A DNA stretch of 64,000 nucleotides from a phage: NCBI GenBank assembly GCA_024614665.1, contig GCA_024614665.1_4861.1. One strand, written 5' to 3'. Both the position numbers and the translations under genes were made by a program. Shown piece by piece: positions 58,361 to 59,995 of this stretch (position 1 is its first letter; every line of letters begins with the position of its first letter). The notes beneath the pieces are model-generated. The model was not told where the DNA came from. It saw nothing but the letters and a program-made list of their open reading frames with translations, and ran no database searches.

Positions 58361-59995
58361 TTAAGAATTAAACCATTCAACTTCTTCTAACTTGCGACGT
58401 GCATTCAACACCATAAACTCCGCCAGGCTATTGTGCAGTGACAAGTGAGGTATATAGTTTGGCTGATCCGTCTCACACTTCAGCAGCACAGCTGCTTCTG
58501 GTGTAGCCCTGAGATGGAACAGATACGGGTTGATGTGATCCTTGTGTAACAAGGTCAGTGATTCCCGTGGTGTAGATTGCGGTTCGAGATTACGCGGGTT
58601 GCGATACTCCTGAAGATAATATCTATCTAAATCTGCTTTGAGTTCAGATCGAATTGGGTCGGCTGCGTAACCGGCAGACATCTCAGAACGCACCATATTG
58701 CAACTTAACAGTTGCGCAACGTCATACATTCCGTAATTGAGATAAGTTGCCTGTGCTAACGCCATGCCGTAGCGAAACGCTTCTGGTCCACATTCAGTAT
58801 ACGTCTTATAATGCGCGCTACGATGAAGTGCTAATGCGACTAACCATTCGTGGAGCGTATAGACAGGACCGTCGTGTGTTGCCAGTTGCGAATCAATCAA
58901 TAACTTAACATCTGCTGGAGCGGCATTATCCAGGCGCATTGTTTTCAAGAAAGAGCGGTATTCTTTAAATACGTACTCGGTACGGACGTATTCTTTCATC
59001 TGGGCAGGAGAACGTGCCTGCACCAAATCCATGGCGTTTATCTTACCCTTTTCGCCATTGAATACCACACTTTCTGGATGCGCTTTTAACAGCACCGGCT
59101 GGTTAGAGATTTTATTTGCAAAACCCGTTTCAATCTCTTGTTTAACCAGAAAATACATGCCGGTGACGATATTGTTGTTAACCATGATTTCAACCGGTAA
59201 TTCACCACCGACTTCACGGACAGCCAACAATTTAATAATAGCATACGCCAGGATATAATCTTCCATCATATCCGTGCCATAGCCCCGCACCGTAGCCAGT
59301 ACCGACAAACTGGTGCTGTTCGTACCTTTGTTTGCCAGTTCTTTTTCTACCTTTTCCATCACTGTCTGTAGGAACCCACGCAGTTTCGGAATAGCAGGTA
59401 AAGACATGACTTCTGTGTCTTGAAGCATCTCCAGACAGTATGTCAGATTGTACACCATTTTCCGATGTGTTTCGATTGGCAAGTTCTTACCTATCGGGAA
59501 CGTCCCCATGGTGAGGAACACCGGAATATACGGTTTAATCGTCAGGACCAGTATCAACAACTCGTAATAGTCCGGACGAATGTACGTCATCGCTTCCGGA
59601 TAATTACTGTTCATTTCATCGTGTGTATCTTCCATGTTCTGCGGAATCCACAGCTTATCGATGGGATACAGCTTACGATACACTTCAGCCTTGTGGAACT
59701 TCGCAATCGTCTGCACAATCTTCGGCATGTGCTTACGCTGCGTTTCCGTCGATTCGTTTGCCAGCTCGTCCAGCATCAGATACGCCATGAACAGTTCATC
59801 TTGTTCGTCTGGCGTTAAATAATCCCACACGCGTTGTAATTCCATGAAGAGAATGTTGTCGCGTGCAATCTGTTTACCTTTAACAGTGATGTAGTCGGGT
59901 GCGTTGTTATCCTTCCGATAACGTAAGCCAATAAATGAGACCTCTTGACCATGATGCTCGATTGTCATCCGGTCTTTAATCTTCGTAATTTTCAT
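58361..59995 (-). CDS. hypothetical protein (544 aa), candidate early gene
   Basis: ORF track; promoter-like element 35 nt upstream of ATG; second copy embedded near its 3' end. Confidence 0.55.
   Translation of the reverse strand: MKITKIKDRMTIEHHGQEVSFIGLRYRKDNNAPDYITVKGKQIARDNILFMELQRVWDYLTPDEQDELFMAYLMLDELANESTETQRKHMPKIVQTIAKFHKAEVYRKLYPIDKLWIPQNMEDTHDEMNSNYPEAMTYIRPDYYELLILVLTIKPYIPVFLTMGTFPIGKNLPIETHRKMVYNLTYCLEMLQDTEVMSLPAIPKLRGFLQTVMEKVEKELANKGTNSTSLSVLATVRGYGTDMMEDYILAYAIIKLLAVREVGGELPVEIMVNNNIVTGMYFLVKQEIETGFANKISNQPVLLKAHPESVVFNGEKGKINAMDLVQARSPAQMKEYVRTEYVFKEYRSFLKTMRLDNAAPADVKLLIDSQLATHDGPVYTLHEWLVALALHRSAHYKTYTECGPEAFRYGMALAQATYLNYGMYDVAQLLSCNMVRSEMSAGYAADPIRSELKADLDRYYLQEYRNPRNLEPQSTPRESLTLLHKDHINPYLFHLRATPEAAVLLKCETDQPNYIPHLSLHNSLAEFMVLNARRKLEEVEWFNS
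58613..58627 (-). promoter_or_regulatory. promoter-like 15-bp element, type A (inside coding sequence)
   Basis: Exact AGATAATATCTATCT inside gene 58361..59995, about 265 nt upstream of the next gene start (58348). Confidence 0.35.

Follow-up and report, generated by a model that had tools for sequence, protein, structure and literature searches.

A conserved early-promoter core inside the gene of a sigma-like RNA polymerase subunit probably serves downstream phage-nucleus genes in SPN3US-like phages

A giant Salmonella phage related to SPN3US encodes the sigma-like fifth subunit of its non-virion RNA polymerase (nvRNAP), the counterpart of phiKZ gp68 and AR9 gp226, in a 544-aa gene that carries an internal copy of an early-promoter motif near its 3' end. 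We find that this copy, termed P2, is under nucleotide-level selection and conserved beyond coding needs. It is probable that the gene heads a three-gene early unit in which P2 works as a promoter for the downstream genes. Judged from the sequence, its most likely effect would be a second transcription start for the two phage-nucleus genes that follow.

The DNA analyzed, hereafter the window, is a 64,000-nucleotide stretch whose source phage is an SPN3US-like Seoulvirus (99% identity). It contains a gene block syntenic with phiKZ gp65-gp74 as well as with the corresponding regions of Eowyn, Psa21, pVp-JHP1101 and Erwinia phages. The phiKZ proteins gp66, gp67, gp69 and gp70 each share one PHROG with their positional counterpart in the window, and their order is identical. 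The relevant features are the following:

60131..60826, minus strand: 231-aa gene, homologue of phiKZ gp67 (Imp6) and PhiPA3 gp61 (ChmC), upstream of the unit
60092..60111, minus strand: stable, terminator-like hairpin that follows the 231-aa gene and has a weak U tract
60030..60044, minus strand: P1, exact match to the motif AGATAGATATTATCT (46.8 bits by weight matrix), with the core GATAGATATTATC at 60031-60043
58361..59995, minus strand: 544-aa gene, homologue of phiKZ gp68 and AR9 gp226
58614..58628, minus strand: P2, internal exact copy of the motif (29.3 bits by weight matrix), core at 58615-58627
56648..58348, minus strand: 566-aa gene, Imp1/PicA family (phiKZ gp69, PhiPA3 gp63)
55268..56635, minus strand: 455-aa gene, homologue of phiKZ gp70 and PhiPA3 gp64
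55230..55257, minus strand: intrinsic terminator, GAAGGGA-loop-TCCCTTC followed by U7, closing the gp68-Imp1-gp70 unit
54871..54885, minus strand: further exact motif copy, upstream of the nvRNAP beta/beta' gene pair
52603-54840, minus strand: nvRNAP beta-like gene, 745 aa, gp71-73-like (Pfam Rpb2_6 / Rpb1_5 hits for the pair)
50498-52603, minus strand: nvRNAP beta'-like gene, 701 aa, gp74-like (same Pfam hits for the pair)

The proposed early unit would thus comprise, in order, the hairpin, P1, the gp68 homologue, the Imp1/PicA homologue, the gp70 homologue and the intrinsic terminator. The hairpin, with a fold energy of -17.4 kcal/mol (z = -4.75), separates the 231-aa gene from P1 and was listed by the terminator scan on the opposite strand. 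The closing terminator (-19.3 kcal/mol, z = -4.1) was overlooked by that scan and confirmed by folding. Annotation of the beta/beta' pair draws additionally on matches to phrog_3295 and phrog_3015, both described as 'RNA polymerase beta subunit', and on the SPN3US annotation.

The 544-aa open reading frame at 58361..59995, with an ATG start on the minus strand, is present as described in an earlier sequence-only reading of this DNA. In a 17-sequence alignment, M1 and K5 are invariant, which favors this start over the 535-aa start annotated in SPN3US. The same reading had placed the gene upstream of the RNAP cluster; sequence, profile and fold matches instead make it a member of that cluster, encoding the gp68-type subunit. 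A phmmer search of the PDB matched the protein to 7OGP_B (PHIKZ068) with E=2e-6, and a profile built from 17 homologues matched the same chain with E=1.3e-18 over residues 39-464; PHIKZ068 was the only PDB match in both. An AF2 model (pLDDT 75.3) searched with Foldseek retrieved 8QUE_B (phiKZ gp68) at E=3.3e-14 and 7S01_A (AR9 gp226) at E=3.7e-4. All of the top six PDB matches were phiKZ gp68 or AR9 gp226, and the next one had E=0.34. The protein also shares phrog_3209 with phiKZ gp68, while neither Pfam nor NCBIfam holds a family for it or for the 231-, 566- and 455-aa proteins. Its gene adjoins the nvRNAP beta/beta' genes among presumed early genes in the conserved gp65-gp74 order. Compared with the structurally characterized subunits (PDB 7OGP, 8QUE, 7S01), the protein is similar in length (544 vs 521 aa) and its gene likewise lies between gp67 and gp69 homologues next to nvRNAP beta/beta', yet identity to phiKZ gp68 is only ~19%. 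TM-scores span 0.25-0.46 over the full length and reach 0.74 against the partial chain 7OGP_B; the modest values of 0.40-0.44 are expected for a multi-domain protein modeled outside its complex. Subunits of this type are a physical part of the nvRNAP and are required for promoter binding in phiKZ (PMC8287921) and AR9 (PMC7598289).

The neighboring genes encode members of families known from the phage nucleus. Twelve nucleotides past the 544-aa stop codon, and behind a strong AAGGAG ribosome-binding site, starts the 566-aa gene, whose product belongs to the Imp1/PicA nuclear-import family. This link was made through family profiles, intermediate sequences and structure. Both the 566-aa protein and phiKZ gp69 match phrog_3141 over their full length (6.6e-157 and 2.7e-179), and a profile search with the 566-aa protein reaches proteins that are in turn related to phiKZ gp69 by BLAST at ~1e-40. 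Searched by structure, its AF2 model (pTM 0.73) retrieves chimallivirus proteins, Eowyn ORF069 among them, at E ~1e-21 and TM 0.6-0.7. A tblastn search with the single protein did not reach phiKZ, and an hhalign comparison of the family with the single phiKZ gp69 sequence was collinear and not significant (E=0.053). In phiKZ, PhiPA3 and Goslar, Imp1/PicA is found at the nuclear periphery, and cargo import depends on it (bioRxiv 10.1101/2024.03.21.585822; 10.1101/2024.03.27.586873). The 455-aa protein shares phrog_3520 with phiKZ gp70 and finds PhiPA3 gp064 (2e-15) and the phiKZ group (2e-7) by tblastn. On the other side of the unit, the 231-aa protein is a ChmC/Imp6 family member: it and phiKZ gp67 both fall into phrog_3284, and synteny agrees.

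PHROG families, gene order and sizes of these three proteins correspond to those of Imp1/PicA, Imp6/ChmC and gp70/PhiPA3 gp64, and all three families have disordered, low-complexity C-terminal tails. The description of the two downstream proteins as Gly-tailed was correct, as the 566-aa protein ends in a Gly/Leu-rich tail and the 455-aa protein in ~60 aa of LLGG(S/G) repeats; the 231-aa tail is rich in RGG/GGY. Unlike the Gly/Leu-rich tails of the window, with their GGL and LLGG repeats, those of phiKZ are rich in N/Q/M. As a speculation, LLGG / NPFG-type repeat tails might act like nucleoporin FG repeats at the shell.

In phiKZ the shell gene adjoins an nvRNAP gene, and on this ground the sequence-only reading had proposed testing the early genes of this block for shell-like or other abundant early functions, while claiming no homology. 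We give next to no credence to the notion that any of the 544-, 566- and 455-aa proteins builds the shell in the manner of chimallin or forms a lattice as another abundant early protein, even though the genes stand in an early-promoter context and PhiPA3 members of the 566- and 455-aa families associate with the shell. No chimallin was matched in PDB sequence searches with the three proteins or in fold searches with the 544- and 566-aa models, the 455-aa protein being covered by sequence only. The 544-aa protein matches only gp68/gp226 in both kinds of search, the 566-aa profile has no PDB match and the BFVD matches of the 566-aa model are all PicA-family proteins, and the 455-aa protein has no significant PDB match. 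What survives of this suggestion is that the two downstream families correspond to PhiPA3 gp63 (PicA/Imp1) and gp64, which localize to the nuclear shell (PMC10643120); the chimallin homology does not. The diverged chimallin of SPN3US is encoded elsewhere, by a 617-aa gene beyond the window (RefSeq gp244; PMC9365700). That gene adjoins another nvRNAP gene ~2.2 kb past the right end of the window. BLASTP of gp244 against phiKZ gp54, the PDB, Pfam and PHROGs returned no detectable similarity; its assignment as chimallin is that of PMC9365700.

The motif that defines P1 and P2 is highly enriched in the window. We found five exact copies of AGATAGATATTATCT and two with two mismatches, all on the minus strand; these seven compare with 0.08 expected from shuffled sequences, and none of 100 shuffles reached seven. 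Six copies are intergenic and lie 25-70 nt before start codons, several of them directly after hairpins. A weight matrix trained on intergenic copies only, taken from the phage of the window and three related phages, gave the six intergenic sites scores of 41-48 bits; the internal site reached 29.3, and the next best of 128,000 positions 4.5. A sigma-70 promoter scan was uninformative (11 sites vs 8.4 expected). As had been proposed from the sequence, a promoter-like element precedes the 544-aa gene: P1 is exact, and 34 nt separate it from the ATG at 59995, placing it 35 nt before.

Several lines of evidence agree with the earlier view of this motif as an early-promoter element. It precedes both nvRNAP operons in the window as well as the chmA gene of SPN3US and relatives, and it resembles the element TATATTAC found before gp68 in phiKZ, so that an early-type promoter lies just upstream of this gene in both phages. 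Asesino, Wellington, ChrisDB and SPN3US carry the identical 13-nt core ahead of their gp68, nvRNAP beta and chmA homologues. Sites equivalent to 54871-54885, before nvRNAP beta/beta', are present in all relatives examined, and at the P1 position the motif or a one-mismatch variant occurs in Asesino, Wellington, ChrisDB, STsAS and four metagenomic relatives. Tandem copies stand before chmA in SPN3US, ChrisDB and Derbicus, indicating that doubled promoters recur in this locus. AT-rich motifs of ~10 nt centered near -10 precede early genes in every RNAP-encoding jumbo phage (PMC7598289). Like the phiKZ-type early promoters with their TATATTAC core near -10, the element described here is short and AT-rich, has ATATTAYC in common with them, and occurs in codirectional copies before nvRNAP genes and chmA, often directly after a terminator hairpin. 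It differs in its clade-specific core GATAGATATTATC and in a preferred GTGA, located 4-7 nt downstream of most intergenic copies; the nvRNAP-beta promoter also lacks GTGA. We regard (A)GATAGATATTATC(T) as the early promoter of the SPN3US-like clade. Because the motif precedes the nvRNAP genes and chmA, which have to be expressed before nvRNAP exists, we infer the injected virion RNA polymerase to be the enzyme that reads it.

P2 sets itself apart from the other copies by its location. The sequence-only reading had reported a second exact copy within the coding sequence about 265 nt before the next gene. The copy is indeed exact and internal, but it occupies 58614-58628 and not 58613-58627, owing to a one-base shift or another framing of the 15-mer. 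While P1 and five other copies hold intergenic positions that give short leaders, P2 lies inside the coding sequence, 266 nt before the ATG at 58348. Its core GATAGATATTATC is read as the codons GAT AGA TAT TAT C and encodes D-R-Y-Y-(L/P) of the gp68 homologue. The core is exact in ten lineages, whose gp68 homologues are as little as 44% and at most 84% identical to that of the window at the protein level. As these lineages are related, the exact copies do not represent ten independent events. It forms the longest invariant DNA run in the ten homologues (13 nt, next best 5), a length reached in only 1 of 20,000 codon-column shuffles. Given DRYY, the chance of obtaining GAT AGA TAT TAT is ~0.001-0.003 per lineage; AGA is rare among Arg codons (2.5-3.6%). 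In each of these phages, P2 coincides with the promoter consensus of that phage, no other strong intragenic motif match occurs in any relative, and P2 sometimes matches better than the P1 of the same phage. Around P2, the GTGA downstream is missing and the A-rich tract upstream is incomplete.

The internal copy is absent from the equivalent position in phiKZ, Eowyn, Psa21 and the Vibrio phage pVp-JHP1101, and is therefore clade-specific. The equivalent residues are (D/N)E(L/Q)(Y/F)PH in phiKZ (DELYPHQ), Eowyn and Psa21, and DTYPYY in pVp-JHP1101. Since these phages have other residues there, the protein can do without DRYY. phiKZ itself gets along with no copy inside the gene.

If P2 were a mere by-product of protein constraint, the gp68-type subunit would need D-R-Y-Y-(P/L) at this position and no initiation would occur. 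In favor of this reading, all ten lineages have DRYY, conservation of the second Tyr and of the Pro after it (replaced by Leu in the window and in STsAS) extends further, and the P2 flanks fit the promoter consensus less well than those of intergenic sites. We nevertheless consider this explanation quite improbable. Among 105 degenerate columns with an invariant residue, only nine keep a single codon in all ten lineages, and four of these nine are the consecutive codons of P2. Its Arg is encoded by AGA (~3%), whereas a conserved Arg six codons downstream uses CGT/CGC, and a Tyr four codons downstream is encoded by either TAT or TAC. More distant homologues tolerate E-L, E-Q or T-Y at these positions. 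The promoters of Derbicus and Phobos read ATATAT(A/G)TTATC, and in these two phages the P2 site has become GAAATATATTATC at the cost of an Arg-to-Ile change, a covariation that amounts to a single evolutionary event; here, the amino acid was altered and promoter-like DNA was kept.

Selection could also act on the DNA or RNA for reasons other than a downstream start. P2 might be a binding site for the virion RNAP or a regulator that pauses or occludes read-through from P1, or translation might pause at its rare AGA codon and thereby help the C-terminal domain of gp68 to fold or assemble. In favor of such scenarios are the nucleotide-level conservation and the rare codon; in addition, P2 has no downstream GTGA of the kind found at most intergenic copies, and the leader of a P2 transcript would be long. 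We hold these alternatives to be unlikely. The conserved stretch reproduces the 13-nt promoter core base for base in the sense orientation and follows the clade-specific promoter consensus. A pause codon would need no fixed flanking GAT, TAT and TAT codons; absence of GTGA is likewise seen at the nvRNAP-beta promoter.

A functional second promoter for the two downstream genes would predict just such conservation of synonymous sites across ten lineages, and we consider P2 most likely to be one. Transcripts from P2 would have a ~255-nt leader and would add to read-through from P1. Expression of the nuclear-import factor and its gp70-type neighbor could in this way exceed that of the polymerase subunit or be uncoupled from it. 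The intragenic position would follow from the 12-nt gap between the 544- and 566-aa genes, which is too short for a promoter. An in-frame short product initiated from P2 was considered and rejected, as the sole internal Met would yield a 17-aa peptide. Recognition of P2 by the virion polymerase, the transcript start and the role in dosage are what we infer from this arrangement. A leader of ~255 nt is atypical when compared with phiKZ early leaders, which are mostly 31-40 nt (PMC8244752); the text of that study makes no mention of gp68. A literature search found no transcriptome for the SPN3US-like clade.

P2 differs from the early promoters of phiKZ-like phages by its place within a coding sequence, where it is kept by selection, and by a leader that would measure ~255 instead of ~30 nt. 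It resembles intragenic promoters in compact phage and bacterial operons, in which a promoter located in the upstream coding sequence provides an extra start for distal genes where the intergenic gap leaves no room for one. It differs from these in that P2 is presumably read by a virion-packaged multisubunit RNAP, and in that the dual-coding segment is letter-identical in at least four named genera plus unclassified metagenomic lineages, with a variant in Derbicusvirus.

The gene identities reported here were already known and expected from published family surveys; the conserved intragenic promoter core appears to be a modest new element. For SPN3US-type phages, four 'hypothetical proteins' become named phage-nucleus machinery, i.e., the sigma-like nvRNAP subunit, Imp1/PicA, the gp70-type protein and ChmC/Imp6. 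Tentatively, and with less confidence than in the promoter itself, we propose that in Seoulvirus, Erskinevirus, Machinavirus, Wellingtonvirus and Derbicusvirus a virion-RNAP promoter, P2, has come to lie within the gene for the sigma-like nvRNAP subunit and may define a separate early unit for the nuclear-import module, which comprises Imp1/PicA and the gp70-type protein with their Gly-rich, cohesive tails. The dosage and timing of the importer might thereby be set apart from those of the polymerase that it must carry into the phage nucleus, and the 13-mer might be the minimal sequence for the virion RNAP, working without the GTGA and A-tract flanks. To our knowledge, no virion RNAP has been purified so far. 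P2 offers a testable handle on how this enzyme recognizes promoters, and would bear on the balance between the importer and its cargo in the first minutes of infection.

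The 544-aa gene (58361-59995, minus strand) encodes a non-virion RNA polymerase (nvRNAP) fifth subunit of the phiKZ gp68 type, as four agreeing lines of evidence from sequence, profile, model and PHROG family establish. Searching PDB chains with the single sequence returned PHIKZ068 as the sole match (7OGP_B, E=2e-6), and a profile of 17 homologues matched the same protein at E=1.3e-18 over residues 39-464. The AlphaFold2 model (pLDDT 75) matched phiKZ gp68 best (8QUE_B, E=3.3e-14), followed by AR9 gp226 (7S01_A, E=3.7e-4), with no other match in the model search at E<0.3; phrog_3209 was matched full-length by both the 544-aa protein and phiKZ gp68. 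In phiKZ, gp68 is the fifth nvRNAP subunit, has a sigma-factor-like placement and is required for assembly and promoter binding (PMC8287921), and homologues have been reported from all jumbo phages with such polymerases (PMC7598289). The gene is therefore a member of the RNAP cluster, not merely located upstream of it as the sequence-only reading had proposed. The SPN3US RefSeq annotation starts 27 nt further downstream and yields 535 aa (the forms differ by window 59969-59995). We prefer the 544-aa start for two reasons: Met1 and Lys5 of this form are invariant across the 17 homologues, and the start has a GGAG 10 nt upstream.

Nucleotides 55200-60400 match Salmonella phage SPN3US, as well as some 30 further Seoulvirus genomes, at 99% identity (SPN3US coordinate = 83854 - window coordinate; the window minus strand is the SPN3US plus strand), and public records label every gene of the block 'hypothetical protein'. 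Gene order in the block follows phiKZ gp65-gp74, and five of its proteins fall into the same PHROG families as their phiKZ counterparts, among them a 278-aa protein paired with gp66 (phrog_3229). On the minus strand, the unit runs from a hairpin through P1, the motif copy upstream of the gp68 homologue, to a terminator:

60131-60826, minus: 231-aa gene, counterpart of phiKZ gp67 (phrog_3284)
60092-60111, minus: stable hairpin 3' of the 231-aa gene, preceding P1
60030-60044, minus: P1
58361-59995, minus: 544-aa gene, gp68 homologue (phrog_3209)
58614-58628, minus: P2, the motif copy inside the 544-aa gene near its 3' end
56648-58348, minus: 566-aa gene, Imp1/PicA (gp69) homologue (phrog_3141), 12 nt past the gp68 homologue, with a strong AAGGAG ribosome-binding site in the gap
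55268-56635, minus: 455-aa gene, gp70 homologue (phrog_3520), next after the Imp1/PicA homologue
55230-55257, minus: textbook intrinsic terminator (-19.3 kcal/mol, then U7) ending the unit after the 455-aa gene
54871-54885, minus: next motif copy, beginning the nvRNAP beta/beta' pair

The consensus terminator scan missed the strong terminator at 55230-55257. A conserved 107-aa gene (54907-55230, phrog_3455) on the plus strand separates the gp70 homologue from the nvRNAP beta gene and holds this position in every relative examined, including the phiKZ-distant Eowyn, Psa21 and Vibrio phage. Many SPFM records (LR535901-LR535917) matched the locus only as short shifted-frame pieces (e.g. 5-9, at 30-60% coverage), which look like indel-rich assemblies and not real divergence.

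As had been noted from the sequence, the 15-mer AGATAGATATTATCT (60030-60044) precedes the 544-aa ATG by 35 nt. It recurs exactly within the ORF, one base from the position first assigned when framed as a 15-mer, and the ATG of the next gene follows after 266 nt, in agreement with the earlier estimate of about 265. All copies in the window are on the minus strand: five match exactly and two, reading AGATATATATTACCT, differ at two positions, compared with 0.08 expected from shuffled sequence. Six copies are intergenic, 25-70 nt upstream of start codons, several directly after hairpins. A weight matrix trained solely on intergenic copies (19, from the window and three Erwinia phages) scored the six at 41-48 bits, the internal copy at 29.3 and the next best of ~128,000 positions at 4.5. 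The highest scores in the window belong to the AGATATATATTACCT copies at 19042-19056 and 27545-27559 (minus), which contain the exact phiKZ core TATATTAC followed by AGGTGA; a small hydrophobic ORF (MLTRNHKRAIFAIVAVVAFAVL...) lies downstream of the copy at 19055.

When infection begins, nvRNAP genes in this phage family cannot rely on nvRNAP for their own transcription. We infer that the motif is the early promoter of this phage group, because it stands upstream of nvRNAP genes and, in SPN3US, Asesino, Wellington, ChrisDB and Derbicus, of the chimallin gene. The related TATATTAC 33 nt ahead of phiKZ gp68 counts toward this reading, and virion-RNAP promoters are reported to have AT-rich elements of just such a kind near -10 (PMC7598289, PMC8244752).

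Conservation of P2 was assessed in a codon-level alignment of gp68 homologues from twelve lineages (window, STsAS, Asesino, pSal-SNUABM-04, ChrisDB, Wellington, Phobos, Derbicus and four metagenomic contigs; 36-84% identity to the window protein). The internal 13-mer is exact in all ten lineages with a GATAGATATTATC-type promoter and is the longest invariant nucleotide run of the gene in these ten (13 nt; runner-up 5), a length reached in 1 of 20,000 codon-column shuffling trials. Only 9 of 105 degenerate columns with an invariant residue keep a single codon in all ten, and four of these nine are the consecutive codons of P2. For its Arg, P2 uses AGA, a codon that these genomes choose for 2.5-3.6% of arginines; six codons further on, another conserved Arg is CGT/CGC, and a conserved Tyr four codons on occurs as either TAT or TAC. 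Derbicus and Phobos, whose promoters read ATATAT(A/G)TTATC, carry GAAATATATTATC internally, so that Arg is replaced by Ile and the DNA is still promoter-like. No relative has another strong match within a gene, and in some of them the internal site fits the motif better than the phage's own P1 does.

Constraint on the protein might be invoked instead, yet the DRYY residues are not needed by it, since the equivalent position reads (D/N)E(L/Q)(Y/F)PH in phiKZ, Eowyn and Psa21 and DTYPYY in Vibrio phage pVp-JHP1101; none of these four has a promoter copy there. Against a function of P2 stand its lack of the preferred downstream GTGA, its score below the intergenic copies, a predicted leader of ~255 nt and the fact that the lineages compared are related, not independent. 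A literature search found no transcriptome of this clade. On this comparative evidence, the simplest reading is that P2 is probably a promoter lying within a coding region and kept there by selection in this clade. The proposal that downstream genes have their own early transcript thus gains support from nucleotide-level conservation, the transcript start being predicted; overall, the initial observation was confirmed and its interpretation supported in part.

The suggestion that the 544-, 566- and 455-aa proteins might be shell-like did not hold, as none resembled chimallin (ChmA) in sequence or profile searches, nor did the 544- and 566-aa models in fold searches. SPN3US chimallin is diverged (RefSeq gp244; PMC9365700). 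Its gene adjoins a gp55-type nvRNAP gene ~2.2 kb past the right end of the window; that a shell gene sits beside an nvRNAP gene, as the sequence-only reading stated, is correct, but of a different gene pair. Two tandem promoter-like motifs (SPN3US 15615, 15708) precede gp244 (15768-17621), an arrangement also found in ChrisDB (17058, 17148) and Derbicus (15093, 15169).

The 566-aa protein showed no significant similarity to phiKZ gp69 alone in direct comparison, but a search with its family profile finds proteins matching gp69 at ~1e-40, and its model (pTM 0.73) matched full-length chimallivirus proteins including Eowyn ORF069 (E ~1e-21, TM 0.6-0.7). The gene identities refute the shell-protein idea and assign both downstream genes to families associated with the shell. 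Low-complexity C-terminal tails occur on all three such families in the block and differ in composition between clades: RGG/GGY in the 231-aa protein, GGL-rich in the 566-aa protein and ~60 aa of LLGG(S/G) repeats in the 455-aa protein, with gp70 tails of NPF(A/G)G repeats in Derbicus, M/Q/N-rich in phiKZ and RD/RS-rich in the Vibrio phage. Condensates driven by the ChmC tail are known; we encountered no discussion of Imp1 and gp70 homologue tails in the literature. In related phages, gp69 is Imp1/PicA, an essential nuclear-import factor, gp67 is Imp6/ChmC, and PhiPA3 gp61, gp63 and gp64 locate to the nuclear shell (PMC10643120; bioRxiv 10.1101/2024.03.27.586873, 10.1101/2024.03.21.585822, 10.1101/2023.09.22.559000); import of nvRNAP itself also needs Imp1 (bioRxiv 10.64898/2026.09.21.753271).

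The gene identities are already known in kind, and the putative intragenic promoter is the new element. With 12 nt between the gp68 and Imp1/PicA genes there is no room for a promoter, and any further start serving the import module must therefore sit within the gp68 gene. The predicted tandem promoters before chmA in SPN3US, ChrisDB and Derbicus indicate that early-promoter doubling recurs in the locus. Transcripts from P2 would supplement read-through from P1, and production of Imp1/PicA and its gp70-type neighbour may thereby rise relative to the polymerase subunit or be uncoupled from it.
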